This document shows, one piece after another, positions 22,025-54,590 of a stretch of DNA of 54,879 bases. The notes under the pieces are model-generated. The model was not told the DNA's origin. It saw only the letters and a list, made by a program, of their open reading frames with translations, and did no database searches. The stretch comes from Nemertoderma westbladi (Eukaryota > Animalia > Xenacoelomorpha): positions 1-54,879 of the forward strand of contig JAUCBJ010008993.1 of assembly GCA_032718475.1 (NCBI GenBank). The letters run 5' to 3'. Each line of letters starts with the position of its first letter. Position 1 is the first letter of the stretch. The position numbers were made by a program, and so were the translations under genes.

Positions 22025-22037
22025 GCCACAGGCCATC

Positions 22038-25883: not shown

Positions 25884-26030
25884 ATTTACAATCCGTTGGA
25901 ATGTCACACTTTGATTTACAATCCGTTGAAATGTCTCACTTTGATTTACAATCCGTTGGAATGTCACACTTTGATTTACAATCCGTTGAAATGTCTCACT
26001 TTGATTTACAATCCGTTGGAATGTCTCACT
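25884..26030. repeat. 30-bp minisatellite, about 5 copies, two alternating variants
   Basis: ATTTACAATCCGTTG(G/A)AATGTC(A/T)CACTTTG. Confidence 0.95.
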
Positions 26031-26367
26031 GCTATGGTTTATATGTCGGTGTCGTATAGGTTCAAGTCGTTCAGTCTTTGCGGCAAAAAGTTCAATTCTT
26101 TATATACCGGTAATGCATTTCCCCAATCTACGGTGAATTGTGCTTATCAACTAACTATAATCTATTAATGATCTACTGATATTATCTGAATGATTTTTTT
26201 ATTCATAAAGGTTTGTTTCACACAACATAGAGATGAGAACATATAGATATCATTTATGATTTATTTGAGAACATTTTACAAAAATTGAAACAGTATTTTA
26301 GAACAAATGAGGTATTGAAGTACCTCGGAGATTACAGTAGAAAGTATACAGTTACCGGTCGCAGTAC

Positions 26368-27375: not shown

Positions 27376-28078
27376 TAAGGCAGTACTGAGAGACTGGCAC
27401 ATGTATTTATTATATCTTTAACGTTTTATCTATTGGAAATGGATATAAAATTTCAAATTCAAAGTATACAAGTGCGATAGACTAATGCAATAATAACGAC
27501 ACAAATAAAAAGAGATATATTCGGTCCCCAGGTTGTTACTTTTGGCCGATTATTAAATTTTGACCTGGTTTTTAACATTATTCGATAAATTACTTCATAA
27601 TTATAATATATAACCTAATTTGCAATTAATATTGGACACGGTATATTATTTATAACCTTTTATTGAGATACTAAGACAATGTTTAAAAATAATACCTACT
27701 GTTTCACATTATTTGCACTCAATTAATCCCCCTCACACTACATTATAGTTCCCATTACAACTGACAATGCAGTCCTGTAGCTAGACTAAATAGCGCCGGT
27801 ATTTGTCGTCAAATAACGGATAATAATCCGTTAAGGAAAACTGCGCGAATAAATACATCCGCAATTCAGCGAAAAGTTGTTACATAGTTTGACTTACAAC
27901 ATATTTGCCGATATAATTACCGCATTCCAGAAACGATAATCACTCAACATTTTCATTATCGCGCCCTAAAAGTATTATTATTTTACAATTTTACAATCTT
28001 TGCGAGGCTGAAACAATATTTTTTCTATAATTCCACAATATTTTCTATGATTCCAAAATATTTTGGACTTTCATCTAA

Positions 28079-29303
28079 TGTTCGCGCTTTTAGACCTTTG
28101 GCAGTTTAACCCGCCAAATTAGGATGTCTTCTAGATAATAAATCACCTTTAGTCTATGACAAGTATTTAATTCACTACACTAGTCGAAACCAATCTGTGC
28201 GCGATCATTCACCCGCTGGATATACCCGGGAGATTGGGTTCGACGGCTTAATTTTATTGCTATGTAAGCCTAATGTATTATTCGACTGACAGTATTATAT
28301 AATCTCTGACAATATTATTCACCTTCGGGGAATATTAACAGTTCCTTTAGGACGTGGCGCTCTATCTATACAAACAGAGTTATGACTTAAACTACTCACA
28401 ACGATGTGGCTTAGTTATAATTCACATATATGGCGCATTCTTTAGGAAATGCTTCGTTATCAGTCTCACTCATACACAATGCTGCACAATACTGCACACT
28501 GATCTGCCGATCTTCACTGATTTTAGTCACATATAAAAGGAACACGGACCGAATCATGTAGGGTCTATCAAATAACATTAGATTCACTTCAAACCACTTT
28601 AACATAAGTCACAATTGTTATATGTAACCCTTCTCTCTTACCTTCAGTATATCAAGAATATTGGGTTTCGGGGTTATTTATCGTTATTCCAAATATAATA
28701 ATTCATCAACCATATTATGAAGAACTGACAGTAAATAGCAGTATAACAATATAAAGTATGCACAGGTTGTTTGATTAGGTATGGTATGTTATGTTGTGAT
28801 AAATGCAGATAACGGATATATGTCCTTATAATTAAGCCTACTAGTGTAGGGCTAAAGCCGTTCTTCCTGGCTTAGAATCACCAACAACACTAAAAACTGA
28901 TAAGAATAACTATAAGAATACCAGCTACCCTTATTCTACAAAGATCTCACCCATCACAGAGAATGAGCATACAGATAGGAAATTCAGTTCAGTAGATCTG
29001 TGATAGGTCAAAATCAAAACCAACTCAAATCCTATTGGCAGATACAGAAAGCAGGGCTATGGGGCAACGTGGCAATATCAGCCGTTAGCCGTCGTCATGG
29101 TAGCGACACTGTTTTCAAGAGTATCGAGCTTTTACGTCACGAAATTGCAGATTATGTCCTCTAAAGTACAAATACAGAAGAAATGGCTTTTATGTCCTCC
29201 AAAACACCAGTACAGCAAGGACACGGCCCTTTTATGCCTGGTAAACCAACCACAGAGTACTTTACAGGGATAATAACCGGCTAATTACGCAAAAGCTTTT
29301 ACA
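28079..29303 (-). repeat. 3' LTR of BEL element 1 (1225 bp)
   Basis: Direct repeat of 38463-39698; sense termini TGTAAAAG...CGCGAACA. Confidence 0.95.
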
Positions 29304-29772: not shown

Positions 29773-30903
29773 TTAACTCGTTTGGTACAACGTTCTCCGC
29801 CACTTTGGTGACAGGTTATATCGTGTCAAGCCGGGACGATGGTAAGGGTTAAACGGCGATATTAAATGTCCGCGTCCCAATCCGGCTAGGTAGGATGGGC
29901 TAATATCTAAGAAACCCACAACTGGGGTGCCACCGACTAATCGTTCAGGTAACACCAGATCTTTGAGCAGTGAGTACAGCTCGGGAGGATCCGTCATACT
30001 AATAGGATCAAGAGTCTGAGGCCTCACTAGGGAATGAGGAGCTCTGATCGAGTATTCCGAAACTCTGATCATTGGTTTATTTAAGGATCGTCTGAGTCGA
30101 ACGAGCGTAGGTGATACATTGAACAAGTTTCGCTCGAAACTCCCGTAAGTATAGCGAGTAAAACCGTGTTTAAAGCAACGTCTCCGCGGATGTTTATGTC
30201 TTTCCGTTTGTTGGTTGGGTCTTGGGCATTCATCGCAATAATACCCAAAAACGTACGTCTTGTAGGGGAAACGCGAGTGATCTTTCTCCAGCTTACAATA
30301 TTCCTCCATCCGTTCGAAGCTATTCGGTACAACAGGTAGCGGTCGATCGGCGGTAAGATACATCATAGGGGAATCGAGCCGTTTGAGTTCTACCATGCGG
30401 TCATGATGTATACCTTGAGGATATCGAGTTTCTAGATTTTGTTGACTGGCAATATTGAGATATGTTTCTATCAGGAATTCCAGATAATCGTTGAAGTCGC
30501 TGCGTTTATCCGGCTCCTCAACGTCTTCTCTTTCGAGTCTGTTTCGAATAGAATTCTCGTGTTCCATTCTCGGTTTATCGTTCCGCCTCCGCTGGGTAGG
30601 ATATTTCAATCGTACCATTTCCCTTTTGGTGTCGACATTGTCCGTATCGTGTAAATCGATAGGATGACCAGTAGTTAAGAAGTCCACATACGTACCATTA
30701 CGATGCGTATAGCGAGCGGTGAATTTCTTATAGTCCAACTCACGCGTGAGCTGCTCTTGGGACATTGGCGGTTCGATATAACGATCATCGTCCTCCGCAG
30801 CAGTTGGACCAGCGTCGCCGTGTATCAAGCTATCAACAAACGCTTGTAAAGGTAGAGTATATCGCTCCCTGATACCAAGATCATCTTCTATCAACTCAAT
30901 CAT
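29773..30903 (-). CDS. Accessory ORF of unknown function (376 aa) in the env position of BEL element 1
   Basis: Intact ATG-initiated ORF in AT-rich flanks, same strand as gag. Contains CDEC-x16-CFKH. No signal peptide or transmembrane segment visible. Confidence 0.8.
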   Translation of the reverse strand: MIELIEDDLGIRERYTLPLQAFVDSLIHGDAGPTAAEDDDRYIEPPMSQEQLTRELDYKKFTARYTHRNGTYVDFLTTGHPIDLHDTDNVDTKREMVRLKYPTQRRRNDKPRMEHENSIRNRLEREDVEEPDKRSDFNDYLEFLIETYLNIASQQNLETRYPQGIHHDRMVELKRLDSPMMYLTADRPLPVVPNSFERMEEYCKLEKDHSRFPYKTYVFGYYCDECPRPNQQTERHKHPRRRCFKHGFTRYTYGSFERNLFNVSPTLVRLRRSLNKPMIRVSEYSIRAPHSLVRPQTLDPISMTDPPELYSLLKDLVLPERLVGGTPVVGFLDISPSYLAGLGRGHLISPFNPYHRPGLTRYNLSPKWRRTLYQTS

Positions 30904-31734
30904 ATCTGCTATATAAATTTATCCATATTATAATGAGTTTATATTTAGGTGAGCAGGCGTCGCTGCCTACCCCAATCAGCCCCAGGACAGTGCGAGATCC
31001 TCAGCGCCGATGTGTCGTCGCCGCTGTACTTTCGCCAACGACGTAGCCGCACAACGACAACGACAACCGGCACAAGTCACTCGACTGTCCGTCCCAAAGG
31101 CTTAGATACACCTCAGGTTCTTACTGGAGAGTTAGGGTTACTTTCACAATTGCGACTTGCTACTGTAAACACACCTTAGTAGTAACATTCGCCTATAAAC
31201 TCACAAATACCACACACACAACTTGTCACAAATTACACACACTCGGGTCACTTGTCCGTTAGTCAATGCCTTCCAGAATGTCACTGTATTATTATGTATC
31301 CTTGGATACTATCAGTGCACTATTTATTCCCTATGCTATTCAATGGGACAAGCTTTCTATTGTTCTCTTAACTCAATTCTAATTCTAGCGTGGTTGTTGC
31401 TATGGTGACATTATGTAAAGCTAGCGGTAGAATTAGGGTAATTCCAATGCATACAGATCTGGGATGTTATTTAATAGTAATTCTTTAATAGTCAATGTCC
31501 TGTTTTATACATGACTTTATGAATTTTATCGGCTATTGACTATGTTTGGGAGACTTCGCACACTCATACTCATAATAAGATAAATCTCCGCTCCCTTGAT
31601 CTATTAATTAATGGAATTTTGGGAATGTTATAAATTGCGTAAAAATGGCAATTTATTAAATTCATTAAAAGTCATGAATTTAAATTTATTCCCTGAAATT
31701 TTATTATTTGATAATTAAATTGACATATTTTGAT

Positions 31735-32555: not shown

Positions 32556-35500
32556 TTACGTTATGGAGTCCCTAGATGTTTGAAGGATTAGGGAGGTGGT
32601 CGTGGGAAGAGAATCTTGCCTTCCACAGTTTCCGGAGAGTCCTCCATTCCCTTCCGGTAAACACAAACGACCAGCTGGGCGATTGAGTCGCTGCATCCCG
32701 AATACAATTCCAGGTTTCCTCTTCGTCCTGGAATAGTGACGATAGAAACATCGCTCTAAGTACACGACGGCCTTACAAAGCCGATTCCAGGAGCTATAGT
32801 GGTCCGTCGCTCCCTGCAGGAGAGGTGAGAGTCCCTGCGAGACGTCTGATGTTCCAGAGCTCCAATCGCTCTCTCTGATCTTCATGAAGGATCCACTCGC
32901 GGTGGGGAGGTCCAGATCCACGGCGTCGTCCCTGGCAATATGTAATACCGACAGATCTATCCCGGGTTCAAATAACTCCGCTCCACCCGTCCGGGTTTTA
33001 GCTTTAACTTTCTCCGCTCCCTTGGCTGGTCTAATCTCAGTCGGAGTAAGATGGGGAGGCCATTCATCCTCCTTACTCAGGAAGTCGGGTTCACCTAACC
33101 GGTCTGTAGTATCTGTCAGTTCTTGAGGAGTTGCTCCTCTGGAAGCGATGTCAGTTGGATTAAACTTCTTGGGGCAATATCTCCATTGATCTACATTGGA
33201 GCTAATATCGTCATTATCTGAGGAGTATGGTGTTCCCTCAGTTGGGTCGTCTCCCTCACTAGTATCATCTTCCCATTCACTCACCTGGCAGACGCGATCT
33301 TGAAGCAGTCTTTCTCTGAGCGTTCTACGGGAAGGTCCAGTAAGGTACCAACCTACTCTAGTTCTTACCGCATAGGTCTGAAGTGGTTGCGGTTGAGTAG
33401 GTCGTTTCTCTAATGTCTCCAGCGCCTCATGCGCGTTTTGACCGATTAATATTTGTACTCCAGGATAATCGGTGTCGAATCTAGGGATGTTAAGTTGTTG
33501 GGCATGATCATCTTCGTCCCAATTATAAGGTTCCACTTGGGTGGTAGCGAAGTTCTTTATTGCCACCATTTTTACTGACCTTATACTGTATTCTCCTAGT
33601 TTATCCTGTGGAGTGGACAACTCACCTATATAATAGTCGGCAGCTACAGTAGAATTCCAAACCTGCATGATCCCTGACATGTTTAGCTTGGTTCGGAACT
33701 TGGGTTGTCCAGCAAAGATGACTTCGGCTAGTTCTTTATCGATGAATGTTCCTGTGCTACCGGAGTCCAGGAGGGCGTTCACTATATAGCTCTTCTGAGG
33801 TCCGTGGACCCGTAACTGGACTACAGGAAATTCTCGGATTCCTATATTGGAAGTTGGCGCTTTCCAAGATGGTTGTTGATCTGAAGTAGTTAGGGTGAGG
33901 TCGCTGTCTGTGTCTTTCTCATACATGAGTGCTCGATACACTGCGGTGGTGTTTATTAAGTAACAGGATTCGTTTTCGTTGGAGAACTCGTCCGTATAGA
34001 ATCCTTCCATCTCAGATTGATCAGTGTCGTTCACATCACTGAATTGGACATGTAGTTCGGACTCATTTACCTGACTCGGGCTGTTTCGTTCGAATTCCGT
34101 GTGCAACAAGATATGATGTTTTGCGCCGCACTTTGCACACCTTGCGTCGGAGTAACAGGTTCGCCGTTGGTGTCCTCGTCTGAGGCAATTATAACACAAC
34201 CGCTTATCCCACATGACTTCACGTCTATCCTTTAGTGATTTCCTCAGGAATTTATCACACGCATTTAAACGGTGGGGCCCGTCGCACAGCACACATTTCG
34301 GCTTGATGTTACTTACTTTAACCTGTGCTATGTGGTGCACACTTGTTCTTTCCTCGGGCTTTCTCACCTGAATTATTTTAGGAGACGTAGGAAGGGTTTT
34401 TTGTACCGGTTCCCTTCTGTCATTGGGTCGAGACTCGGATTTACTTACCTGATCTTTAGGCATTTTATTGACATAATAAGATCTGTCAGTGTCTTTCCCG
34501 CTGTCCTCTCCTTGAGAAGTTTGGCTTTCACCATCGTCGGTATAACATACTGGTGTTACCCTTCTCCTAGAAACGGGTTTCTCACTTACCTTGTTTTCCA
34601 ATGTCTTCTCTCTGGACTGCCTTAGGAGCTGTAATTTCACTTCTCTATCTAAGAATGACATGAGATCAGTCATGGTAGGGTCTCGTCGTTGTTGTTCCAT
34701 CATATATAACACCTTCTTATCCCAGCGTGTACCTACTCCACCCTTGGGCAAAGTAGATGCTAAGGCTCCTACAACCATAGAATTCTGGTATTCATGAGAC
34801 TTACCTAACCAATCTAGTTGTCTACAGATCTCCTGAATCTCATCGGAAAACTCTATAATCCCGCTGCTAAGAAACTTTCGGGGCGCCATTAATTTCGCAT
34901 ATAAATACCTAGCTATGTTAGTCCTATTACCATACCTGATGTTTAGTGTATCCCAAACTTGTCTTAATCCATCTGGATGTCCAATAAATTTTAACGCCAT
35001 TGACTTGGGAGGTCCTTCCAAACATTCGATGAGGAATCTAAGTTTCTCTCCGTTAGATAGTACAGAGTTCTGTATGTTATCTTTGTAATATTCATTAAAA
35101 GGTAACCATTTCATCTCATCTCCATTGAACTTGACGATCTCTCCAACCTTTACCGCTTGTTGGGCTTCGGTTCTAGCCATTTGGCGTGTAAAACTTTCTT
35201 GAGCCATCGCATTATTGAATAGAGAATTATCGGTATATAAGTTTCTCGGATTATTATCAAGTCTAGATGAGATATCATTATCAACAGGTTTATAATTACC
35301 CTTAATAGGGTTCACTATAGGAGTTTCTATTTCGCTAGCAGTATAGATGCGTGTAGGCTCCACACCTTGCGCATGGGATACTTCAGACCTAACGGGTTGA
35401 CACATTGTTACAGGGGGTGGTGGTATACCCTTTTGTAAATTGACTAATTTATCGCGTTCTAACGCGATACTTTGCTGCACCTTTTGCAACTCTAACCTAC

Positions 35501-36161
35501 TTTCCCTTACTGTTCCCTTGAGCTGCTGAACAGTCTCTTCCATTTCCCGGACCTGCTGAGAGGAGCACAAACAGTGTTCCCTCAGCTGCTCGAGCAGGAG
35601 ACCCATCTCCCGTCGTCCCTCAGCTACCCACTCAACCGCCGAAGCGGGAGTCGCCAACGTTGTAGCGGGCGAGCGAGAGACGACGGGCGATAAATTCTTA
35701 ATATCTCGCTCGGCGTCCAGGATGGGTTCGGACTCGGGAACAGTCCTACTGGGCACAGGTAGTTTAGTACTGTGCAAAGGGAATCTAGAGGTGGTTTCTG
35801 GGAGCACAGGTGTCTCTAGCACCGAAGGGGTGTCTTCGAGAACAGGCCTAATTATTTCAGGCTCATCTGTTATAGTAGGGAGTCTTTCTACTGTAATAAT
35901 TTGGTCTGTGGGTTCTGTACCACAGAGAGTTCTGTAATACGCTAGATAGTCTGCATTATCCAGATGCATTCTCACCTCAGGAGGTACCCTCCGCTTGAGC
36001 ATCCGTCTACGTCCGCTTGAACGAGATTTATTACCTCTACCTTCGGGATCTCTTATATCACCTTCATCGGAGGAGGCAAATCCCTGTCTTCTGATTTGTC
36101 TCCTCAAGTCTGCTTCTGCCACTGCCTCTGCCGCTTTTCTTTCCGCTTCTGCTGTTGCCAT
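32556..36161 (-). CDS. gag-pro: BEL/Pao Gag-protease fused in frame to remnants of the RNase H end and integrase C-terminus
   Basis: DUF1759-like KFNGDEMKW...EKLRFL; triple zinc knuckle CVLC..H / CYNCL..GH / CAKC..HH; protease LLDSGS; then WRYCPKKFNPTDIASRG and RPAGRLCL. First ATG is 36161. Confidence 0.92.
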   Translation of the reverse strand: MATAEAERKAAEAVAEADLRRQIRRQGFASSDEGDIRDPEGRGNKSRSSGRRRMLKRRVPPEVRMHLDNADYLAYYRTLCGTEPTDQIITVERLPTITDEPEIIRPVLEDTPSVLETPVLPETTSRFPLHSTKLPVPSRTVPESEPILDAERDIKNLSPVVSRSPATTLATPASAVEWVAEGRREMGLLLEQLREHCLCSSQQVREMEETVQQLKGTVRESRLELQKVQQSIALERDKLVNLQKGIPPPPVTMCQPVRSEVSHAQGVEPTRIYTASEIETPIVNPIKGNYKPVDNDISSRLDNNPRNLYTDNSLFNNAMAQESFTRQMARTEAQQAVKVGEIVKFNGDEMKWLPFNEYYKDNIQNSVLSNGEKLRFLIECLEGPPKSMALKFIGHPDGLRQVWDTLNIRYGNRTNIARYLYAKLMAPRKFLSSGIIEFSDEIQEICRQLDWLGKSHEYQNSMVVGALASTLPKGGVGTRWDKKVLYMMEQQRRDPTMTDLMSFLDREVKLQLLRQSREKTLENKVSEKPVSRRRVTPVCYTDDGESQTSQGEDSGKDTDRSYYVNKMPKDQVSKSESRPNDRREPVQKTLPTSPKIIQVRKPEERTSVHHIAQVKVSNIKPKCVLCDGPHRLNACDKFLRKSLKDRREVMWDKRLCYNCLRRGHQRRTCYSDARCAKCGAKHHILLHTEFERNSPSQVNESELHVQFSDVNDTDQSEMEGFYTDEFSNENESCYLINTTAVYRALMYEKDTDSDLTLTTSDQQPSWKAPTSNIGIREFPVVQLRVHGPQKSYIVNALLDSGSTGTFIDKELAEVIFAGQPKFRTKLNMSGIMQVWNSTVAADYYIGELSTPQDKLGEYSIRSVKMVAIKNFATTQVEPYNWDEDDHAQQLNIPRFDTDYPGVQILIGQNAHEALETLEKRPTQPQPLQTYAVRTRVGWYLTGPSRRTLRERLLQDRVCQVSEWEDDTSEGDDPTEGTPYSSDNDDISSNVDQWRYCPKKFNPTDIASRGATPQELTDTTDRLGEPDFLSKEDEWPPHLTPTEIRPAKGAEKVKAKTRTGGAELFEPGIDLSVLHIARDDAVDLDLPTASGSFMKIRESDWSSGTSDVSQGLSPLLQGATDHYSSWNRLCKAVVYLERCFYRHYSRTKRKPGIVFGMQRLNRPAGRLCLPEGNGGLSGNCGRQDSLPTTTSLILQTSRDSIT

Positions 36162-37514
36162 TGCCTCTGCCACCTTCCTTTCAAGACACTGTCCAAGTCT
36201 AATTTTGTTTGTACAGTTGAATGCCTACTGCTATATTACAGTTAAAGCAAGTCTAGTAATTCAGTATCACTGCTAGCCTAGTAATTAATTACCGATACTG
36301 CTACTCAGTGTAGCGTGATATATATAATATATTAGAATACCGGTATGCTTATAGTATATATAAGTATTATTACAGACTAGGTTTATCACAGAATACCAGT
36401 ATAATTTTAGCACAAATATATATAAATATATAATAGGCCTATCGGGAATACCAGTATACAGCTTACAGCTTGTAGTATATATAAGTATAATTCTGTACTA
36501 GAATTAATTACAAGTACCGGTATAATTTCAGCCGAAATTTATAGAAATAAAGATAATAGGCCTATCGTAAATACCGGTATATCAATTATTTTAAATAATT
36601 GAATTTCTGAATTTTAGGGTTACTTTGTTACTTTACTTACTTTATTACCGTTATTCGAGCAGTAGTCCAACTGATATTGAGACCTAATGGTTGTATGGTA
36701 GGCCTACTATTTATAAATCGTTAGATTTGATTTATAATATATATATACCCGTTTTAATGGGTTTTGTCAATGTTTGAAATAAATGTTATTATTTCTGGGG
36801 AGTAATCACTACACAAAGCGGTGCGCTTTCAGTGAAGTGTTACTTATAGGACACTAAAACAAATAATACTAATTTACCTAAGTTACTTAATACTACAAAT
36901 TACGTACAATTCGGGTGAGATTACAATCTCTAAATAAACACAAAAATTTACAAAAAACACAAAATACGAATTTTCAGGGTAATTTTAAAAGAAGTCTACA
37001 AACCAGCCTAACAAAGGGTTAGAATCTGGTTATTACAACGGACAGGGTACTACGGTATTTGAAAATAATAAGTAGTAGTAAAATACACTGCGTTGTCCAG
37101 ATAGGAAAATACCACCGCCTGACGACCTATAGCCGTATCGCTATAGGTACTACGTTATGTATCACGGAGTGTCCCTACCTAGAAGTTAATAGAGCTAATC
37201 GAACGTGCCTATCAACCAGTTTACAACACAAATATAATGCCTACACTAATTACTTTCGGAAAGCACTGTACACTAAACCCTAAATTAGGTACGAGTACTT
37301 GTACAACATATAATCAGTAGTTAAATATACTTGAACAGCTAAAAGAACCACGGCATCTGCTGGAGTGACCGATGCACAAAATCACCAGTCTTTACCTACG
37401 CCAAGCAGCCCGTGTAGTACCGGGGTTAATTTAACTATAGCGGTATGTATAACAAACACAATTACTGTAGGAACAAACTTGGGGAATGAATGTTGCGAAT
37501 AATCGCATAAACTC

Positions 37515-38100
37515 TGAATAATAAATATTACGCTACGCGTACAAACCACTCAAACAAAATGCAGACCAAATACTGACAGACTACTATCAAGCCTAAATAA
37601 ACTACAGGACATGCAGACTCCGAAATGATTAGGTAGTATGCGTTCTAACCCAGTAGTACGACTTATTCTTTAGTTGGGGGTTTACCTTACAGTATTTGCT
37701 GCCCCTACTTCCTAACCGTTCTTTATCGGACAGGTGATCTACACACACTGCAATCCGTTCAGACCTAATAACAGCCAGACAACTATCCAGCCTACAAATT
37801 ATCTAAATAAATATTATACGCTACCCGTACAGACTTACACAAACAAAGTACAGACTAAACGATGGCAGACTACTCTCAAGCCTAAATAAACTACAGGACA
37901 TGCAGACTCCGAAATGATTAGGTAGTATGCGTTCTAACCCAGTAGTACGACTTATTCTTTAGTTGGGGGTTTACCTTACAGTATTTGCTGCCCCTACTTC
38001 CTAACCGTTCTTTATCGGACAGGTGATCTACACACACTGCAATCCGTTCAGACCTAACAGCAATCAGACAACAGCTCAGCCTACAAATTGTCTGTACAAT
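37515..38100. repeat. 289-bp tandem duplication in the 5' leader of BEL element 1
   Basis: AAGCCTAAATAAACTACAGGACATGC at 37589 and 37878, with about 200 bp of identical core. Confidence 0.9.
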
Positions 38101-38267
38101 CTGATCAGGCTTACACGCCTTCTGTTCAATACTGGCCTACAAACAAATAAAACCGACAGAAACAAGTAAAATCTCAATAAAAAACCAGGGCGGCCGTTCC
38201 CTGATTAAGTACTAAGACCTACCGGTATATAACTATCAAATTCGAATAATACTAATGTACTTATACT

Positions 38268-38420
38268 GGAAGTACCGGTTAGGACAGTTGGGCCTACGGA
38301 CCTACAGAAGTACCGGTTCTGGCAGTTGGACCTACGGACCTACAGCAGTACCGGTTCTGGCAGTTGGGCCTACTGACCTACAGAAGTACCGGTTCAGGTT
38401 TACCGGTCAACCGGTACTTT
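38268..38420. repeat. ~38-bp tandem repeat (about 3.5 copies) at the start of the leader of BEL element 1
   Basis: GAAGTACCGGTTCTGGCAGTTGG(G/A)CCTACGGACCTACA; almost identical copy at about 53107-53260. Confidence 0.9.
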
Positions 38421-38450
38421 CAACTTTATTGCTTACTGCAATAAAGAAGC

Positions 38451-38462
38451 TATATCCGTTAT
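38451..38462 (-). promoter_or_regulatory. Non-tRNA primer-binding site of element 1, complementary to its own LTR
   Basis: Sense ATAACGGATATA abuts the 5' LTR and is the exact reverse complement of the sense sequence at 39204-39215. Confidence 0.8.
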
Positions 38463-39698
38463 TGTTCGCGCTTTCAGACCTTTGGCAGTTTAACCCGCCA
38501 AATTAGGATGTCTTCTAGATAATAAATCACCTTTTGCCTATGACAAGTATTTAATTCACTACACTAGTCGAAACCAATCTGTGCGCGATCATTCACCCGC
38601 TGGATATACCCGGGAGATTGGGTTCGACGGCTTAATCTTATTGCTATGTAAGCTTAATGTATTATCCGACTGACAGTATTATATAATCTCTGACAATATT
38701 ATTCACCTTCGGGGAATATTAACAGTTCCTTTAGGACGTGGCTCTCTATCTATATAAACAGAGTTATGACTTAAACTACTCACAACGATATGGCTTAAGT
38801 TATAATTCACATATATGGCGCATTCTTTAGGAAATGCTTCGTTATCAGTCTCACTCATACACAATGCTGCACAATACTGCACACTGATCTGCCGATCTTC
38901 ACTGATTTTAGTTATATATAAAAGGAACACGGACTGACTCATGTAGGGTCTATCAAATAACATTAGATTCACTTCAAACCACTTTAACATAAGTCACAAT
39001 CGTTATATGTAACCTTTCTCTCTTACCTTCGGTATATCAAGAATATTGGGTTTCGGGGTTATTTATCGTTATTCCAAATATAATAATTCATCAACCATAT
39101 TATGAAGAACTGACAGTAAATAGCAGTATAACAATATGAAGTATGCACAAGTTGTTTGATTAGGTATGGTATGTTATGTTGTGATAAATGCAGTTTTGTT
39201 ATGATAACGGATATATGTCCTTATAATTAAGCCTACTAGTGTAGGGCTAAAGCCGTTCTTCCTGGCTTAGAATCACCAACAACACTAAAAACTGATAAGA
39301 ATAACTATAAGAATACCAGCTACCCTTATTCTACAAAGATCTCACCCACCACAGAGAATGAGCATACAGATAGGAAATTCAGTTCAGTAGATCTGTGATA
39401 GGTCAAAATCAAAACCAACTCAAATCCTATTGGCAGATACAGAAGGCAGGGCTATGGGGCAACGTGGCAATATCAGCCGTTAGCCGTCGTCATGGTAGCG
39501 ACACTGTTTTCAAGAGTATCGAGCTTTTACGTCACGAAATTGCAGATTATGTCCTCTAAAGTACAAATACAGAAGAAATGGCTTTTATGTCCTCCAAAAC
39601 ACCAGTACAGCAAGGACACGGCCTTTTTATGCCTGGTAAACCAACCACAGAGTACTTTACGGGGATAATAACCGGCTAATTACGCAAAAGCTTTTACA
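38463..39698 (-). repeat. 5' LTR of BEL element 1 (1236 bp)
   Basis: Direct repeat of 28079-29303 with 10-bp and 1-bp indels. Confidence 0.95.
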
Positions 39699-40439
39699 GC
39701 TAGATTATGGTAGTCAAGTACAGTAGAACGTTCAATTCCGACGTAAGAGGAGCGTTCGGGGTATTAATTGCTTCTTAGAATGGCCACGAAGGTTGCTGCT
39801 GGTCCATCCCAGACAGGTACACCTTAACACCTATTGGCTATGGGTAATCCTTCATGGTGACACACACGCACCATTATTTATGGGTCATAATTGGGGTGGA
39901 TTATGTTCTATTTTCTACTCATGTCCTTAGACATCTTGAAAAAGATGGCCCCCTACAGGAGGGACACCCACTACTTGTTTCTTGAAGTACTGTAGGGGAA
40001 TAATCCAGCCAAACATGTATCCTACTGATATAGACTTTGTTTATGATTTAGGAGTTATGTAGGCCTAGGCCTACACGTTCGTGGGGCCTTCGCGCAGCAC
40101 GAGGCCCAGTTATGAGATACAAATTAAAATTGTGCGACTGTATCACAAAATCAGGTTATGAGAGATTAACCCACACCACCAATTAATCAAAGAAAGGGGG
40201 ACAGTACGTGTTCACCCCTTTTAATCTGCACCCCCCCCCCCCCCTCCCCCACCCACCAATACATAACCGCGACATCTACCACCCACGGAAGGGTAGCACG
40301 AACTTATTTCCAAACGCACGTTCAATATGCAAAGCCAGGTGGTTTATAGGAATATAATCAATGCAGTACTCGTCTTCATTATAAGCCTCTTTGCGTTCGA
40401 CCTGTTTTATATTAAAATATATTTATTAAACGGAGGCTG

Positions 40440-43571: not shown

Positions 43572-43843
43572 GCTGCACGAAGGCCCCACGCAAATTCTAC
43601 TTGGAAAATTTTCAAACTTTTGCCAAACAACATGTGTACCAAGTTTGGATAGATTTCATCAAGGGTTGGCCGAGTTATTAACGTTTAAAATAAAATACTG
43701 AAAAAAAACGCGACAGAACGACAGAACGACAGGTTGATTAATGGTACCACTACGCTAAGGCTCTCTCACTTCGTGGCTCGCCCCACAGGTTGATTAATGG
43801 TACCACTACGCTAAGGCTCACTCACTTCGTGGCTCGCCCCACA
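43572..43843 (-). mobile_element. Helentron/DINE-1-like non-autonomous repeat with a duplicated ~57-bp end
   Basis: Reverse complement of 45488-45690. CAGGTTGATTAATGGTACCACTACGCTAAGG...CGCCCCA occurs twice in tandem. Confidence 0.7.
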
Positions 43844-44950
43844 GTACCATTTTAATTATCCATGGATACAATTACGATTACAAATTACGATACAAAATAC
43901 GATTTTTCGATTCTATGGAATAGGAGGCCTTAACCCACCACATTGTATTTCATGTGGACGCAAATATCTTTAAATTTCCTGAGCTAAACATGAGAGTTTT
44001 ATTTTATGTGGGGATGCAATATAACTTTAAATAATATAATCAATCCAGTTTAGAAGTGAGTAAAAAGTATATTATTTCTTAAACAAATTATTTATCATTA
44101 TTATTATTATATTACAAGAAAACATTAGAACAAAGTAAACATTATTACAAATCGTGATACAATTTATTGTATGCAATTAAAAAATAAAGTGCAAACTAAC
44201 TATGGTCAACTAATTAAACGCGGGAATTTTAAAACGTAGATTATCAATGTTTGACGTAGGCCAACTGCAGTAAACTGTGTTCATGTGTACTGTTGGTGGA
44301 GGGAGAGCAGCAGAGGCGGGTGTTATACAGTTATACGTACTTCAGTATCAGTACTCTACTCAGGTACTGACTGCTTATGTTTCACTGTTTGTGCAGCTTG
44401 CAATTAGTTAGTGACAAATTACTATTCTGCCATTAGCAGATTAGGTAACCATACTAGCCAGTCTACGGTCTACCGGCAGACCGGTACCTTGTTTCTTGTT
44501 AGGCCTATTCTTCTAGACTCAAAACAAAACTTTATCTGCGGACCGTGGTAGTGCAACTGATTAACTGTCCTTTATCCTGTTTTATCTGTTTTTATAACAA
44601 TTTTCCCAGGTAATCCTGTCATTGCGGTACAGCGGTTGTGCGGTATATCGTAAAATTTTTGTTGTAGTCAGTAGTAGTATCTGTAGATCTGAGTACTGGA
44701 GTATAGTACGTAGTCGTTATTAGGTACTATTCAGGTACAGGTACAATTCCATAATACTGTAATATTTCGTGTTCGCTATTCAGTGTGTCCAGTCCATGAA
44801 CTCGAGGCTTATCAAAAAGCCATCAGCTATCATAAGCCTTAAAAGTATTGCATTGTTTGGACTGTCTGCCTGTAGTAGGACGCTAGTTTGTACTGTTATA
44901 AAGCTGTAATCGTGAAATGTGCAGCACTGTAGTAGTCTTTCAGTTTATCG

Positions 44951-45310
44951 ATGAATGTGATGATGGCTTCGAAAGCAATCTGTATAACAAACTTATGGAC
45001 TAAATGCCGATTGAATCTGTCTGGCCAACTATTAAGCAGAATCTACCCGTCCAGAAGTTTGAGTAGAACTGTTCCGCGGTCGACTCCCATGCACGTTCCT
45101 ATGCCATACGTGCTGGAACAAACGCAATTCGGCGAACGCGCCTACGACCTGTACTCGAGACTACTGAAGGACCGTATAGTCTGCCTTATGGGACCGGTTA
45201 GCGACTCCCTATCAAATACTGTCGTCGCCCAGTTGCTGTTTCTCCATTCGGAAAGCGCAAAGAAACCGATCCATTTGTACATAAATAGTCCCGGGGGTGT
45301 TGTATCCCAG
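44951..45310 (+). CDS. clpP: First coding exon of mitochondrial ATP-dependent Clp protease proteolytic subunit; downstream exons not in this window
   Basis: Arg/Ser-rich transit peptide, then [30 protein letters not shown]...[21 protein letters not shown]. Donor GTAAGG at 45311. Confidence 0.93.
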
Positions 45311-45487
45311 GTAAGGTCGTAGAATATCAGCTCAGTACTGTAAGTTGGATGTATAGGCCTACACATTTACACGATTTCATTAATTACATACGTAACTTAA
45401 TAACATTAGATGCTACGGCAATAATTGTTATTGCAACATTGGATGGGACAGAGCAAAATATTATTCATTGTTCATGTGCATTTTCTT

Positions 45488-45690
45488 GTGGGGCGAGCCA
45501 CGAAGTGAGTGAGCCTTAGCGTAGTGGTACCATTAATCAACCTGTCGTTCTGTCGTTCTGTCGCGTTCAATTTTAAACGTTAATAACTCGGCCAATCTTT
45601 GATGAAATCTACCCAAACTTGGTACACATGTTGTTTGGCAAAAGTTTAGAAATTTTCCAAGTAGAATTTCCGTGTGGCCTTCGAGAAGCT
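45488..45690 (+). mobile_element. Helentron/DINE-1-like non-autonomous repeat in the clpP intron
   Basis: GTGGGGCGAGCCACGAAGTG...(CTGTCGTT)n...TAATAACTCGG...CCAAACTTGGTACAC. Confidence 0.7.
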
Positions 45691-46117: not shown

Positions 46118-46169
46118 AGTACTCTGCGTTGATACCACTGCTTAAGCAGTGGTATCAACGCAGAGTACT
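46118..46169. other. Library adapter dimer (SMART / PacBio ultra-low-input amplification adapter); assembly artefact
   Basis: Perfect 52-bp palindrome AGTACTCTGCGTTGATACCACTGCTT + AAGCAGTGGTATCAACGCAGAGTACT. Confidence 0.98.
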
Positions 46170-49100
46170 AGCGCCTTGACTTGTAAGAACATTCCTTCTA
46201 TATCAGAGGCGAACGCGATGGAATATTGTCTTAATCTTAATAGTATTCCCAACAAAGATTGGAGTAAGTTGGGTCCTGGTAACAACTCGGAATTGAGGGA
46301 TTGGCCCATATATAGAGCAGAGCCATCAAATACGACTCGTACTTCATGGGGTTTACCGGGTTTGGGAACGTAATGATGTGTTAAATAATACGTTCTCTCA
46401 GTCACTGGTGTTCCTTCCGGTACTCTCTCCGCGTATCCCTTTGTTATAAATTTCTTCAGCTGAGTTTGGTACATTTCTTTCGCTGAAGCATTAGCTGTAA
46501 GGCATCGATATAATTGAGCGATTCTTTTTTCTGCCAAGGGTCTGTTATTTATAAATCTAGGTTCTCGTTTTCGAAATGGTAGGCCGATTTCATACCTACC
46601 TTGGTCCTTTAAAAAACGTGTAGTTGTTTCCTGGATTTGCTTGGCTCTTTCTTCTTCTATCGATAGAGCTTTATCATATGAATTGGGCTCTACCAGTTCC
46701 TGAGTAAAGAATCGTACGGCTAGTTCGTCCCGAGTTCTAGCGTTGTAGCGCTCTATCTCATCGTTTAGTTCGTCATTGTAAGCGATGGGTTCCGATGGGT
46801 GAATCAGTTGACATAGGTTCACCTGACTTTTCCAAGTTTGGTTTTCTGTAAGTAGGTCGATTGTGTTCTCTTCATCGAAGAGTTGGTAGATGTCGTCATT
46901 ATCTGAGGAGTATGGTGTTCCCTCAGTTAGTTCGTCCACCTCACTGCTCTCCACTTCCCAATCGTGTACTTGGTATGTTTGTTCTTGTGGCATTCTCTCT
47001 TCGAGAGTCCTGCGGGAAGGGCCAGTAAAGTACCAACCTACTCTAGTTCTTACCGCATAGGTTTGCAGTGGCTGCGGTTGAGCAGGCCGTTTCTCTAATG
47101 TTTCGAGCGCCTCATGCGCGTTCTGGCCGATGAGTATTTGCACTCCAGGATAATCTGTCTGGAATCGAGGTATCTTAAGATGTTGGATGCTCTCATCCTC
47201 GTCCCAATTATAAAGGTCTGCTTGAGTAGTAGCGAAGTTCTTTATAGCCACCATTTTTACCGACCTTATACCTTGTGCTCCTAACTTATCCTGGGGGGTG
47301 GACAACACACCTACATAGTAATCTGCCGTTAAGGTAGATTTCCAAACCTGCATAATTCCTGACATATTCAATTTAGTCCGGAATTTGGGTTGTCCAGCAA
47401 AGATATCTTCGGCTAGTTCTTGATCGATGAATGTTCCTGTGCTGCCGGAGTCAAGGAGGGCGTTCACTATGTAACTTTTGTTAAGACCGTGAACTCTTAC
47501 CTGCACTACAGGAAATTCTCTGATTCCTACGGTGGAAGTTGGAGCTTTCCAAGATGGTTGTTTGGCAAAAGTAGTTGGGGGAAACTCATTGTTGGTGTCC
47601 TTTTCATAAGTAAGTGCTCGATACACTGCGGTATTGATTAGATAACAGGATTCGTTGGCGTCGGAGAATTCGTCAGTATAGAATCCTTCCATCTCAGACT
47701 CCTGATCAGTGTCGTTTACATCACTGAATTGGACATGTAGTTCGGGCTCACTTACCTGACTCTGTTTATCTCGTTCGAACTCACTGTGTAACAAGATGTG
47801 ATGTTTCGCGCCACACTTTGCACACTTTATGTCGGAGTAACAGGTTCGCCGTTGGTGTCCTGGTCTGAGGCAATTATAGCATAGCCGCTTATCCCACACG
47901 ACTGCACGTCTGTCTACAAGGGATTTCTTTAGAAATTCAGCACACGCACTCAAACGGTGGGTCCCATCGCACAGCGCACAGTTAGGTTTTATGTTACTCA
48001 CTTTACCTTGGGTAACTTGATGCACTCTCGTTTTTTCTTCGGGTTTTCTTCGGTGCATTCTGTTAGGAGACTGAGGAGGGGTCTTGGCAACCTGTTCTCT
48101 CCTATCGTTGTTTCGAGCCTTGTATTTACTTACATCTTTTGAGGTTTTGTCAACGTAGTAAGATCTCTCAGTGTCTTTCCCGCTGTCCTCTTCTTGAGAA
48201 GCTTGGCTTTCGCCGTCGTCAGTGTAACACACCGGTGTTACTCTTCTCCTAGAAGCGGGTTTCTCACTTACCTTATTTTCCGATGTTTTCTCTCTGGACT
48301 GCTTGATGAGTTGTAGTTTTACCTCACCATCCAAGAAGGACATGAGATCAGCCATGGTAGGACTTCGTCGTTGTTGTTCATTCATGTACAACACTTTCTT
48401 GTCCCAGCGTGTACATACTCCACCCTTTGGTAAAGTAGAGACTACGGCTCCAATAACCATTGAACTCTGATATTCATGAGACTTACCTAACCAGTCCAAT
48501 TGTCTACAGATCTCTTGAATCTCATCGGAAAACTTTATAATCCCGCTACTAAGGAAGTGTCGGGGGGCTACTAATTTTGCATACAAATACTTAGCTATGT
48601 TATCCTTGTTACCATACCTGATGTTTAATGTATCCCATACTTGTCTTAATCCTTCTGGATGTCCAATAAACTTTAACGCCATTAACTTGGGAGGTCCTTC
48701 CAAACACTTGATGAGGAACCTAAGTTTCTCTCCGTTAGATAGTACAGAGTTCTGTATGCTATCTTTGTAATATTCGTTGAAAGGTAACCATTTCATCTCA
48801 TCTCCATTGAATTTGACGATCTCTCCCACTTTGACCGCTTGGCGGGCTTCTGTTCTAGCCATCTGCCTCGTAAAGCTTTCTTGGGCCATCGTGTTATTTA
48901 ATATCGAATTATCGGTATATAAATTTCTCGGATCATTATCAGGTCTATAGGGAATATCATTAATAACAGGTCTATAATCACCCTTAATAGGGTTTGCTAT
49001 AGGAGTTTCTACTTCACTAGCAGTATAGATGCGTGTAGGCTCCACACCTTGCGCATGTAATACCTTAGACCTAACAGGTTGACACAATGTTACAGGGGGT

Positions 49101-51082
49101 ATTGGTATGCCCTTTTGTATATTGACTAATTTGTCGCGTTCTAGCGCGATACTTTGCTGCACTTCTTGCAATTCGGCCCTACTTTCCCTTACTGTTCCCT
49201 TAAGCTGGTGGACAGTCTCCTGCATCTGTCCGAGCAGGAGATTCATCCCCCGCCGTCCCTCCTCTACCCACTCGACCGCCGAAGCGGGAGTCGCCAACAT
49301 TGTAGCGGGCTGACGCGGGACGACGGGAGACAAATCTTTGATTTCTCTCTCAGCTTCCAGGACAGGGATATTCTCATGGACTGTTCTACCGGGTACAGGC
49401 AGTGTAGTACTGTGTAAAGGGAATTTAGAGTTAAGCTCTGGAAGTACAGAGGTCTCTAACACAGAAGTGACTTTGGGAACGACAGGCCTAATTATTTCAG
49501 GCTCATCAACTATTGTAGGGAGTCTTTTGACCTGAACAGTTTGGTCTATGGGTTCCGTACTACCTAAGTCTGTGCTAGCTAGCTGTCTTTTAACAGCTGG
49601 GGGCAAATCAGGCAATTTGTGACGGTGAGATGTTTTTCTACGCCTGCTTAGACGAGATCTATTTCCTCCGCCTTCAGGATCGGTGGTTTCGCTTTCCTCC
49701 GATGATGTGTATCCCTGGCGTTTGGGAGTAGATCGTCTCATCATCTGCATTTGCCTAGCAGTTAACTGTTTATTTATGTTGTCTTGCGTCTCTTGCAGAT
49801 TTTCCAACTCCAGTTGGGTAGTCTGCTCAGAGGCTCTCCGTTCTGCTTCTGCCACTGCCTTTGCTGCCTTTCTTTCTACTTCTGCTTCTGCCATAGCCGC
49901 CGCCTTTTGTTCCTCTATCCGTCTTTTCTTTATTTGTTCTTCTTGAACTCTAGCGAGGCGGAGTTTTTCATCAAATTCTGCTTGGTTAGCAGCTAACATT
50001 TCAGCATCTATCGAGTCTAACACACGTTGGGTTCCTTCACTATTAGGGGAAAGTCCAGACAGCCGTCTCCTCAACTCTTCGTCTCCTAGGAATCGCTGAT
50101 AGTCGGACAGATAAATGTCTATAGCGTCTCTCGTTCGTGGTCTCTCTGCGGTCTCTTCGCCTTCTACTTGAGGAAGGGTGGCATCGGTTGGTTCTTCATA
50201 GGTTAGTCTCTCAGACAGCTGGGATTTCCACTGGTCTGTTTCTTGTACTTGGAGACCTACCCGCTGGAACCAAGTTTTGACAGCAACCTGCAGCGACGTG
50301 TCCTGTCTTCTTTTGGAAGTTTCCTCAAAAGCTGATAGGATTAGCCGAATGCATAGGGTTCTTTCGCGTACTTGATATAGCAGTTCTTCCTGCTCTTGAG
50401 GTCCTTGGGGTTGTCGAAACAGTTGTTCTTCCAATCGCTCTAAGGAGCCGAAGAATCCCTGCACATATCCTGCTGCCGACCTCTTCCAAACAGCTGGATC
50501 CATCGTATCTTTAGCCACTCCCATCCTGTGTATATCTTCCCAAGTAGCCTCGGACAGATCTAACGGGAGTCCGGGTCCGGGAAAGTTCCATTGTGACTCG
50601 ACAATAGACATCAATTCTTCCCTGGCGTATCCCGCATAATTATCTTGGGTCGCTCGCTTATTTCTCGCCCAATCTGCTTGATGTTCCTCCACCGCAATCA
50701 ATATAGTTGTTAGCACTGCGGCAGGAAGGGTGAGAAGGGGGTCCGAGTAGGCTTTAGCCGTCATCTGCAATCCGCGTTCGGGGGTCAGTTCGACAGTATC
50801 CGAACTACTGGAGCTATCTGATCGCTGGGAACAAGTTTCTTGACTAGGCTGTTGCTGCTGTGGGACAGCTGCTTCCTGGTTCCGTTTGACTTGGGCCCGA
50901 GTGCCGATGATAGACCTACGGTGTTGGATTAGCTTAGGGTCCGATATCACTACTGGAGGGATGACTTTTCTTTCAGTAGGAGGTGAGCTGAACTCCTTTC
51001 TTAATCGCTCAACACTCCTATCTGTGTCACAGATGGTTGTATCGATTAGACTGTCTGACAGGTTTTGCTGAGTGTCAGACAT
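46170..51082 (-). CDS. gag-pol: BEL/Pao Gag-Pol polyprotein (Gag, protease, N-terminal RT); 3' end lost at the artefactual junction
   Basis: Uninterrupted ORF of about 1637 aa. YYLTHHYV.KPGK...RVVFDGSA, SLNSELLPGPNL, DIEGMFLQV are BEL RT motifs. The final VLCVDTTA* is translated adapter. Confidence 0.95.
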
Positions 51083-52384
51083 GTTTAGCTATACAGTTGA
51101 ATGCTTACTGCTATAGTTACAGTTAAAGCAAGTCTAGTAATTCAGTATGACCGTTGGCCTAGTACCGGTAATTTATTGCAGTATTAGAATACCGGTATGC
51201 GCTTATAATATATATATAAGTATTGTAAACTAGGTTTGTCACAGAGTACCGGTATATAATTTTAGCACAAATATATATAAATATATAATAGGCCTATCGC
51301 GAATACCGGTATACAGCTTACACTTATAGTATATATAAGTATAATTATGAACTAGAATTAATTACAGAATACCGGTATGATTTCAGCTCAAATTTATAGA
51401 AATAAATATAATAAGCCTATGGTAAATACCGGTATGTCAATTATTTTAGAATAATTGATTTTCTGAATATTTTAGGGTTACTTGGTTAGACTAACTTACT
51501 TTGTTACCGTTATTTAAGCAGTAGTTCAACTGATTTTGAGACCTAGTTGTTGTATGGCAGGCCTACTATTTATAAATCGTTTGAGTTGATTTATAATAGA
51601 TATATACCCGTTTAAAATGGGTTTTTTCAATATTCAAAATAAATGTTATTATTTCTGGGGGAGTCACTTACACAGAAGCTGTGCGCTCTCAGTGAAGTGC
51701 TATTTATTGGACAATAAAACAGATAATTCTAATTTACCTAAGTTACTTAATACTACAAATTACGTACGATACGGGTGAGATTAAATCTCTAATTAAACAC
51801 AACAAAAATATTACGTACGAATTTTTAGGGTAATTTTACAGGAAGTCTACAAACCAGTCTAACAAAGGGTTAGAATTTCTGGTTATTACTTCGGACAGGA
51901 TACTACGGTATTTGAAAATAATAAGTAGTAGTAAATACACTGCGTTGTCCAGATAGGAAAATACCACCGCCTGACGACCTATAACCGTATCGCTATAGGT
52001 ACTACGTTATGTATCACGGAGTGTTCCTACCTAGAAGTTAATTACCGCGGACTACCAGATCCAGCGTGCCTATTAACCACTTTACAACACAAATATACTG
52101 CCTACACACTAATTACTTCGGAAAGCACTGTACACTAAACCCTAAATTAGGTACAAGTACTGGTACAACAAATAATCAGTAGTTAAATATACTTGAACAG
52201 TTAAAAGAACCACGGCATCTGCTGGAGTGACCAGAGCACAAAGTCACCAGTCTTGTCCTACGCCAAGCAGCCCGTGTAGTACCGGGGTTAATTTAACTAT
52301 AACGGTATGTATAACAAACACAATTACTGTAGGAATAAACTTGGGGACATGAATGTTGCGAATAATCGCATAAACTCTGAATAA

Positions 52385-52940
52385 TAAATATTACGCTACC
52401 CGTACAGAATACTCAAACAAAATACAAACCAAACGCTGGCAGACTACCACCAAGCCTAAATAAACTACTGTATGTGCAGATTCCAAAACGGTTAGTTAGT
52501 ATGCGTTCTAACACGGTAGTACGACTTATTCTTTAAGAGGGGATTGACCTTACAGCTATGGCTGCCCCAACTTACTAACTGGCACTTTATCAGACAAACT
52601 CTACACAAGCAGCAATCTCTTCAGACCTAATAATAGTTAGACAACAATCCAGCCTACAAAATATCTGAGTAATAACTATTACGGTACCACACAGTCCAAA
52701 GAGCTGGCAGAATACTGTCAAGCCTAAATAAACTACAGTATGTGCAGATTCCAAAATTGTTAGTTAGTATGCGTTCTAACACGGTAGTACGACTTATTCT
52801 TTAAGAGGGGATTGACCTTACAGCTATGGCTGCCCCAACTTACTAACTGGCACTCTATCGGACAAACTCTACACACGCCGTAATCTCTCCAAACCCAACA
52901 ACAATCCGACAACAGTCCGGCCTACAATTATCTGAACAAT
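52385..52940. repeat. 268-bp tandem duplication in the 5' leader of BEL element 2
   Basis: AAGCCTAAATAAACTAC at 52452 and 52720. Confidence 0.88.
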
Positions 52941-53288
52941 CTGAGCAGACTTACACGTCTTCAGCTCAATATTAACTTACTAGGAAATAAAACTGACAGA
53001 AATAGACCTAAGTAAAATCCCAATAAAAACCAGGCGTCCCCGATTTAATATCGAGACCTACCGGTATACAATAATCAAAATCGAATAATACTAATGTACT
53101 TATACTGGAAGTACCGGTTAGGACAGTTGGGCCTACGGACCTACAGAAGTACCGGATCTGGCAGTTGGACCTACGGACCTACAGCAGTACCGGTTCTGGC
53201 AGTTGGGCCTACTGACCTACCGAAGTACCGGTTCAGGTTTACCGGTCGACCGGTACTTTCAACTTTATTGCTTACTGCAATAAAGTCA

Positions 53289-53299
53289 ATGACTGTTAT
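53289..53299 (-). promoter_or_regulatory. Non-tRNA primer-binding site of element 2, complementary to its own LTR
   Basis: Sense ATAACAGTCAT abuts the LTR and is the exact reverse complement of the sense sequence at 54083-54093. Confidence 0.8.
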
Positions 53300-54590
53300 T
53301 GTACGCGCTTTTGAAGACCTTTAGCAGTTTAACCTGCCAAAATTTATATGTCTTTTGGTTTATAAATATACTTTAGAAGATGACAAATATTTAATACCAA
53401 TAAACACAACATTAGCAGAAGCCAGCCTAGTGCGCGTCCATTCACCCGCTGGATATTCCCGGGAGACTGGATTCTGAGGGCTTAGATTATTATTGCAGTG
53501 TAAGCTTACTGTACTGTATTATTCGATTGATCGTTAATAATTAATTTCTGACTAATATTATTCACTTTCGGGAAATATTAACAGTTCCTTTAGGACGTGG
53601 CGCTCTATCTAAATAAACAGAGATATGACTTATACTAATCACAACGGTAAGTCGGTAAGGCTTAAGATTCACGTATGAGGCGCATTCTTTAGGAAATGCT
53701 TAGTTATCAATCACAATCATGCACACTACCGGTAACACACAATACTGCTCACTAATTTGCCGACCGTCAATGAATTTTATCATATATAGAGCGAACAGCA
53801 ACGGACCAATGTAGTGCTTATCAAATAGCATTAAATTCACTACATACACAATAATATAAGTCGCAATCGCTATATACAGTATAACCCGTCTCTCTAACCT
53901 GTAGTGTATCAAGAAAATTGGGAAATTTGGGTTCTTTATATATGTTCTCCAAATAATATTCAACCAAAACACAACAGTGAATAGCAGTATAATAATGTAT
54001 GTTGAACCGATAAGTATCAAACAAAGTATAATAAGATAAGTGAATTGTTAAGTTATGATATGAATTGAATTGATGTGCATTGATAACAGTCATACGCTCT
54101 ATAATTTAAGCCTACTAATGTTTCTTCTAAAAGTATGAAACGAATTGACTCTAGAGCCGTTGTTCCTGGCCTAGATAGCAATAACAAAGTATCAAGAAAA
54201 AACAGTAAGACTGAACACTCTCCTTATGATCGACCGAAAAGCTACACGTCGACAGGAAAAATCGCTCTGATTGGCTCAAGCCAAACAAAGAACCATGCGT
54301 CCAATGGCTGTTTCCATGTCAGCAACCAGCTGTTAGATGTCGTAATATGAATCATCAGGGCTAAGCTGTGAAAGGTATTTGTCGCATTGCAGGTTTTTTG
54401 CCTTACCATGTCCGCTAAAACACGTATATAGCAGAATGACTTTTATGTCCGTTAAAACACCTGTAACGGTACCTTGCGGGCGAGGGGAATATATATACAG
54501 TTAGAGAACCCTTTTAGAGTATTCCAGCGCCTGGGGGGAAACTGGATTGCGAAGCAAAAGGGCCAGTTATATCCCACAGAAGCTTTTACA
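53300..54590 (-). repeat. 5' LTR of BEL element 2 (1291 bp)
   Basis: Diverged homologue of the element 1 LTRs; sense termini TGTAAAAG...CGCGTACA. Confidence 0.9.

Follow-up and report, generated by a model that had tools for sequence, protein, structure and literature searches.

Primer-binding sites complementary to the elements' own long terminal repeats in two BEL/Pao retrotransposons, and a possible self-priming mechanism

We analyzed a 54,879-nucleotide (nt) stretch of animal-type DNA, contig JAUCBJ010008993.1 of the Nemertoderma westbladi assembly GCA_032718475.1 (hereafter, the window is this whole stretch), which carries two related long terminal repeat (LTR) retrotransposons, both on the minus strand, whose primer-binding sites (PBSs) are complementary to segments of their own LTRs. 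Element 1 spans 39698 to 28079, with TG...CA LTRs on both sides of gag-pol; LTR alignment placed its 5′ LTR at 38463–39698 and its 3′ LTR at 28079–29303, and the two are identical at 1203 of 1225 aligned columns (98%). Element 2 has its 5′ LTR (53300–54590; 1291 nt, TGT...ACA), at whose edges loose ends of other copies were found (53299 and 54590; two contigs each in run X5). Between the elements, the LTRs have the same letter at just 800 of 1177 columns overall. The coding part of element 2 is a frame of 1648 amino acids (46142–51088, minus strand) that includes gag with DUF1759, three zinc knuckles, and the protease followed by the N-terminal part of reverse transcriptase (RT), where it is cut at an adapter dimer. 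Element 1 has a gag–protease frame (32556–36224, minus strand), is devoid of RT, and has lost most of its RNase H and integrase.

Judged by their proteins, both elements belong to BEL/Pao (Belpaoviridae). DUF1759 was matched in both gag frames (E = 5e-12 and 2e-13), and nearly all of the 93 homologues had BEL/Pao domains, the nearest proteins carrying PF03564, PF05380, PF17921, and PF18701. A quick RT tree (110 rows, no named references) placed element 2 on a long branch inside a clade of 94 rows (SH-aLRT 98), in which its exact place is unsure, and none of the superfamily names (Sinbad, Suzu, Dan, Flow, Tas, Pao, BEL) was given to it; this clade holds all the related loci described below as well as rows from Schistosoma, Lineus, and salmon, and the insect rows stand apart. 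According to the international committee for virus taxonomy (ICTV), the replication of Belpaoviridae is poorly understood and is primed by a host tRNA, tRNA-Arg or tRNA-Gly, to whose 3′ end a PBS of 18 nt is complementary (PMC8742986), but neither window element has such a site, as no TGG-type tRNA start follows the LTR in either.

Both elements instead have, at the PBS position, a sequence complementary to their own LTR. The PBS of element 2, ATAACAGTCAT (53289–53299, minus strand), lies directly after the terminal ACA of the LTR, and its exact complement, the predicted 3′ part of a self-primer, lies within the LTR at 54083–54093 (minus strand); pairing ends at 11 nt. The PBS of element 1 (38451–38462, minus strand; 11-mer ATAACGGATAT at 38462–38452) pairs over 12 nt with 39204–39215 in the 5′ LTR (11-mer part 39214–39204), and the partner is found again in the 3′ LTR copy at 28809–28820 (11-mer part 28819–28809), both on the minus strand. 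Within the window, the 11-mer of element 2 occurs once per strand, and that of element 1 occurs at the PBS, with its complement once in each LTR. The initial annotation of the sequence had claimed that the two PBSs differ at 3 of 11 positions and that the LTR partner of element 2 carries the same three changes, so that 11/11 pairing is kept. Both claims were borne out: positions 6, 8, and 9 distinguish the two PBSs, and at all three the partners have the complementary change. The annotation had also taken the two LTR sites to be homologous, and our alignment agreed, because they fall into identical columns, each following a conserved block of 12 nt at a distance of 12 nt.

Pairing of this kind was rare in randomized sequences. 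Of 3000 dinucleotide shuffles made of each LTR, 2 for element 2 and 5 for element 1 contained a perfect 11-nt complement, the element 1 11-mer used in the latter being one base shifted. Under independent divergence, three matched compensations with the other eight sites unchanged had a probability of about 3e-5 to 1e-4. The cognate duplexes were predicted at −13.3 and −12.9 kcal/mol, compared with −2.4 and −5.5 kcal/mol for the swapped pairs, corresponding to a loss of 7–11 kcal/mol. Contigs of other runs span the junction between the LTR end and the PBS (records 4, 18, and 19), and among 40 of the 153 variant rows obtained by aligning contigs to the window, none fell inside a PBS or partner; low coverage at 54026–54082 in this alignment was given no weight. 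Farther along the LTRs, an ATTAAA occurs close to the LTR end (659 and 698 nt downstream from the partners), a position consistent with a partner located inside a long R region (R-U5 of about 740–780 nt). A search for a longer, spliced partner of the window elements (GT[AG]...YAG, 40–600 nt) found none, and the LTR portion lying upstream of the partner showed no additional pairing with the leader in element 1 and a single 8-mer in element 2. Two local differences lie next to the partners: the LTRs of element 1 are distinguished by a 10-nt indel right behind the partner, at the predicted cut site (39194–39203 versus 28808), whose extra bases contain ATAAC, and one X5 contig carries different letters for 54014–54081, just behind the partner of element 2.

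We compared these elements with relatives obtained by scanning metagenome contigs, using the best 79 of at least 519 confirmed BEL/Pao loci. None of the 79 had a nucleotide match to the window elements, and a search of viral contigs yielded zero relatives. Enough non-coding sequence was available for 63 loci, and the other 16 were left out; for seven loci, the gag start was placed by hand after the sequences had been viewed. The score of a locus was the longest perfect complement beginning 0–4 nt behind any ACA or ATA upstream of gag, sought in its own flanks either contiguously or over one GT[AG]...YAG gap, and the identical search against the flanks of other clusters served as the control. 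Own-LTR complements of at least 11 nt were found in 26 of the 65 loci that result when the window elements are counted, compared with 147 of 4104 cross pairs. When the comparison was restricted to relatives and each cluster was represented by a single locus, the corresponding numbers were 17 of 48 versus 73 of 2256 (3.2%) at the 11-nt level and 22 of 48 versus 263 of 2256 (11.7%) at the 10-nt level, where about five or six hits are expected by chance; as the clusters share kinship, binomial p values overstate the contrast between self and cross pairs.

Including the window cluster, 26 clusters had a hit of at least 10 nt, and they carried 25 different PBS 11-mers, each matching its own LTR. 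The match was contiguous in 6 of these clusters and spliced in 20. Donors of the form GT[AG]AG, a motif that the search did not require, were present in 16 of the 20 spliced clusters, compared with 131 of 1912 background sites (6.9%). Because 20 of the 26 clusters match only after an intron-like segment is removed, the pairing likely acts on RNA, and we infer that in many relatives the primer is completed by splicing of a predicted LTR intron. The DNA of one relative, L031, holds contiguously the exact exon–exon join predicted for another, L062, which is what intron loss would give. These two are close relatives that differ in the presence of the LTR intron. The 3′ end of the partner was AC in 19 clusters and AT in 3, and the next base was C in 19 and G in 5; this preference (AC or AT in 22 of 26, then C in 19) may be an indirect hint of the RNase H cleavage site. 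Conversely, the two loci that by eye have a TGG-type site, L005 and L007, had self-complement scores below 8. In L009 (about 250–660), an 11-nt splice-junction match seen by eye is accompanied by pairing of the leader with more upstream LTR segments (14 nt in the complement search), which suggests a primer RNA far longer than the core duplex.

The relatives also put the remaining claims of the initial annotation into perspective. A duplex of 11 nt, about the Tf1 length, holds for element 2, but pairing reaches 12 nt in element 1 and spans 10–15 nt among relatives; likewise, ATAAC, described as invariant, opens both window PBSs and that of Tf1 but is not kept among the 25 different 11-mers of the 26 clusters. 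As family constants, both were rejected. The covariation had been offered as independent support for self-priming. All three changes are indeed compensated, but they need not reflect three independent selective events, since with a PBS copied from the primer one copying event could carry them all; the changes in the window possibly stem from few events and may point to templating rather more than to selection acting repeatedly. The inference of self-priming with a PBS templated by the primer is supported, more by the relatives than by the window pair, although duplex length, ATAAC, independence, and the predicted minus-strand transcript start at 54093 were overstated.

From these sequence patterns, we consider it probable that these BEL/Pao elements prime reverse transcription in cis with their own RNA, in a Tf1-like manner, and we have considerably greater confidence in the wider proposition that the primer would be the element's own RNA, whether in cis or in trans. 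In the cis mechanism, the transcript would begin at or upstream of the partner, which would fall within R. The partner would fold back and pair with the PBS, which two flanking helices would hold in a loop, and the RNase H of the element would cleave just 3′ of the duplex, so that the freed 3′-OH could start minus-strand synthesis. Plus-strand synthesis would then copy the still-attached primer into a new PBS, a step with a precedent in Tf1, in which a reverse-transcribed PBS copy is present on about half of the cDNA (PMC11042837). Because the primer would be copied into the PBS, changes in the LTR partner would pass to the PBS and give the covariation observed, and a PBS copied from a spliced primer would match a splice junction. 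In many relatives, splicing of the LTR intron would complete the primer; in the window family, the partner is already contiguous and R-U5 would be long. Since the primer would be consumed at the 5′ end, that part of R would be copied from the 3′ end, and the intron could persist in the LTR.

Predicted RNA folding fits this layout in the window elements. In both elements, none of 200 shuffles folded as well as the LTR end plus leader (z = −3.0 and −3.6). A two-sequence fold gave a 6-bp helix of the LTR end (53303–53308 with 53432–53437, minus strand), in which one pair is changed on both sides between the elements, and a 13-bp helix of the leader (53270–53283) with the LTR (53490–53505, minus strand), which is invariant in both; the leader arm has a rival in a local leader hairpin. 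With the PBS held open, the U5-end arm reached 1.0 in element 1 and 0.99 in element 2 (matched by 0 and 1 of 15 shuffles, respectively) and the leader arm 0.23 and 0.99 (matched by 0 of 15 each). For an RNA of about 800 nt starting at the partner, the mean predicted pair probability of the duplex was 0.97 in element 1 and 0.94 in element 2 (10 of 11 pairs), although long-range fold predictions of this kind are weak evidence in either direction.

Several observations weigh against priming in cis as outlined here. When 120 nt were added at the 5′ end, the predicted duplex fell to about 0.35 in element 1 and 0.0 in element 2; the model therefore hinges on the position of the RNA start, and no TATA box was present 25–30 nt upstream of the window partners. 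The distance from partner to LTR end is 741 and 783 nt in the window elements, compared with mostly 60–220 nt in relatives. The covariation within the family of the window is based on two elements, neither of which shows a complete RT/RNase H, and 26 of the 48 relative clusters scored below 10, many of them containing just part of an LTR. Flanking helices as a trait of the whole lineage found no support either: among 18 relative loci, there were just 3 in which no more than 2 of 15 shuffles matched the U5-end arm, and the leader arm reached this level in 1 of the 15 scorable loci. In addition, the transcript start, the cleavage site, and the primer are all predictions from contig sequence.

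Own-RNA priming might also proceed by another route, with a short trans-acting transcript within one LTR (spliced in relatives) or with the copy of R at the 3′ end as the primer. This alternative is fairly unlikely in our estimate, but it accounts equally well for the covariation and the splice-junction matches. The partner is present in both LTRs, and AATAAA follows within 100 nt in 11 of the 26 clusters, so an LTR-only transcript could exist; the long partner-to-end distance in the window and the loss of the duplex with an upstream RNA start would also fit a separate primer RNA. Conversely, the window elements can form the predicted Tf1-like flanking helices, and a spliced 3′ R serving as the primer would be expected to erase the intron from new LTRs, which most relatives keep. 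A cis primer and a trans-acting short LTR transcript cannot be told apart by sequence.

The pairing could instead be a selected RNA structure of another function, such as genome circularisation, packaging, or translation control, with priming by a host RNA, for example, a tRNA half. The ICTV designation of the family as tRNA-primed (PMC8742986) and the half-tRNA primers of Copia (PMC6317226) speak for a host primer, and no tRNA gene was found in the window. However, the duplex falls exactly at the PBS position, 0–4 nt behind the LTR end, a fixed set of tRNAs would not yield 25 different own-LTR-matching 11-mers in 26 clusters, and both loci with a TGG-type site lack a self-complement, which makes this explanation improbable. 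Chance, or an inverted duplication or conversion at the DNA level without a role in replication, is more improbable still and was already made unlikely by the own-LTR and splice-junction matches of the relatives. In its favour, the duplex is short, the comparison within the window involves just two elements, a chimera point lies 7 kb off in the contig, and with 11.7% of cross pairs passing the 10-nt threshold several of the relative hits are due to chance, but the match has a chance probability of about 1e-3 per element and the compensations of about 1e-4, a DNA-level event has no way to create a match for which the two sides of a splice junction must first be joined, and the junction of LTR end and PBS is bridged by the contigs of other runs (records 4, 18, and 19).

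Element 2 stops at a perfect 52-nt palindrome (46118–46169), an inverted dimer of what we take to be a library-preparation primer. The arm sequence turns up alongside the words "ultra-low" and "adapter" in published papers, which fits this assumption. Because the frame of element 2 stops at this palindrome, its truncation was assigned to an assembly chimera, and natural truncation was rejected; the sequences flanking 46118–46169 may therefore not adjoin in the genome, and the chimera point sits 7 kb from the PBS and partner of element 2. At the ends of element 1 (39699–39703 and 28074–28078), a matching target-site duplication is absent (3 of 5 bases), and given these unmatched flanks, the element may be a recombinant or a chimeric join. 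A frame of 381 amino acids (29773–30918, minus strand) lies between the pol remnants and the 3′ LTR of element 1, where env-like genes lie, and had zero matches in Pfam or Atlas. The leaders of both elements (51089–53288 and 36225–38450) are about 2.2 kb long, conserved between the two, and contain internal repeats of 76 nt and 270–290 nt.

Elsewhere in the window, positions 1–16000 form a G-rich tandem array with a 32–33-nt unit and higher-order repeats of about 2 and 4.2 kb. An unbroken frame of 999 amino acids for a glycosyl hydrolase of family 31 occupies 21978–24977, and a 30-nt tandem repeat is present in five copies at 25884–26063. At 43572–45689, inverted arms that are 84–99% complementary surround about 1.6 kb, including a frame (44936–45322) that presumably resembles an exon of the ClpP protease; this unit may be a captured exon or another assembly artefact.

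On balance, the sequences of the window and its relatives lead us to lean toward a broader scenario, in which a large non-insect branch of BEL/Pao would have exchanged priming by tRNA for self-priming in an event separate from that in Tf1/sushi. Host splicing would assemble the primer in most families of this branch, the PBS would be a reverse-transcribed copy of an exon–exon junction, and the intron would survive because the spliced 5′ end is consumed; the window family would be an intron-less form with a long R that arrived by convergence at a three-duplex fold like that of Tf1 and at a PBS with the same first five bases. If this is true, self-priming reaches a third LTR superfamily and seems to be common there, and in many families reverse transcription would depend on host splicing for its start. 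These elements would then be without the target by which tRNA fragments silence LTR elements, and annotation tools that require a tRNA-type PBS would miss or misjudge them.

Among known systems, self-priming has been reported for Tf1/sushi and predicted for Tcn1 and the Copia TAR lineage (PMC6317226; PMC4600332). The first 11 bases of Tf1 RNA pair with the PBS and RNase H cleaves between bases 11 and 12 (PMC7175516), the PBS opens with ATAAC (PMC11042837), and self-priming involves a three-duplex structure (10.1101/2022.12.06.519325). The window elements resemble Tf1, Tf2, and Tj1, which are Tf1/sushi members of the Ty3/gypsy chromoviruses, in having a PBS right after the 5′ LTR that is complementary to an LTR segment, with a duplex of about 11 nt and an ATAAC start as in Tf1, and by prediction both could adopt the three-duplex layout. 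Yet the superfamily is another one: the proteins are BEL/Pao, with a DUF1759 gag and, in relatives, Peptidase_A17, and do not have the ancestry of Ty3/gypsy chromoviruses. Unlike Tf1, the window elements have 740–780 nt between partner and LTR end, and the duplex varies from 10 to 15 nt across the BEL/Pao lineage. In most BEL/Pao relatives, an intron-like segment splits the partner, which the accessible texts do not describe for Tf1/sushi. The start and cleavage sites of the window elements are predictions from sequence. The window elements would work like Tf1/sushi self-priming and are nevertheless not members of that group.

Like the Belpaoviridae as defined by the ICTV, the window elements carry between LTRs a gag-pol that includes DUF1759 and zinc knuckles as well as protease and RT, but they lack the tRNA-type PBS, and their LTRs of 1.24–1.29 kb are at or above the range of 0.2–1.2 kb (PMC8742986). 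Self-priming in the plant Copia TAR lineage (Houba, Osr-1) and in Tcn1 was predicted by a similar criterion (at least 10 nt, 0–5 nt after the LTR, complementary to the LTR), but these elements belong to other superfamilies and other hosts, and the accessible text describes no split primer (PMC6317226). The accessible parts of four BEL/Pao papers contained nothing relevant under priming terms (PMC554778, PMC2774666, PMC9094657, and PMC3118150), those of a fifth were generic only (PMC8220671), and those of PMC5443660, PMC3601003, PMC6934838, and PMC5341516 offered nothing further on priming. Overall, our literature search, whose scope lay outside most subscription papers, Repbase Reports, and GyDB, found no self-priming or splice-built primer in BEL/Pao. 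Some Repbase entries for invertebrate elements are said to mention self-priming. What is new here is that a mechanism of priming known from other elements probably operates in a family regarded as tRNA-primed, likely with a splicing-dependent form in the relatives.
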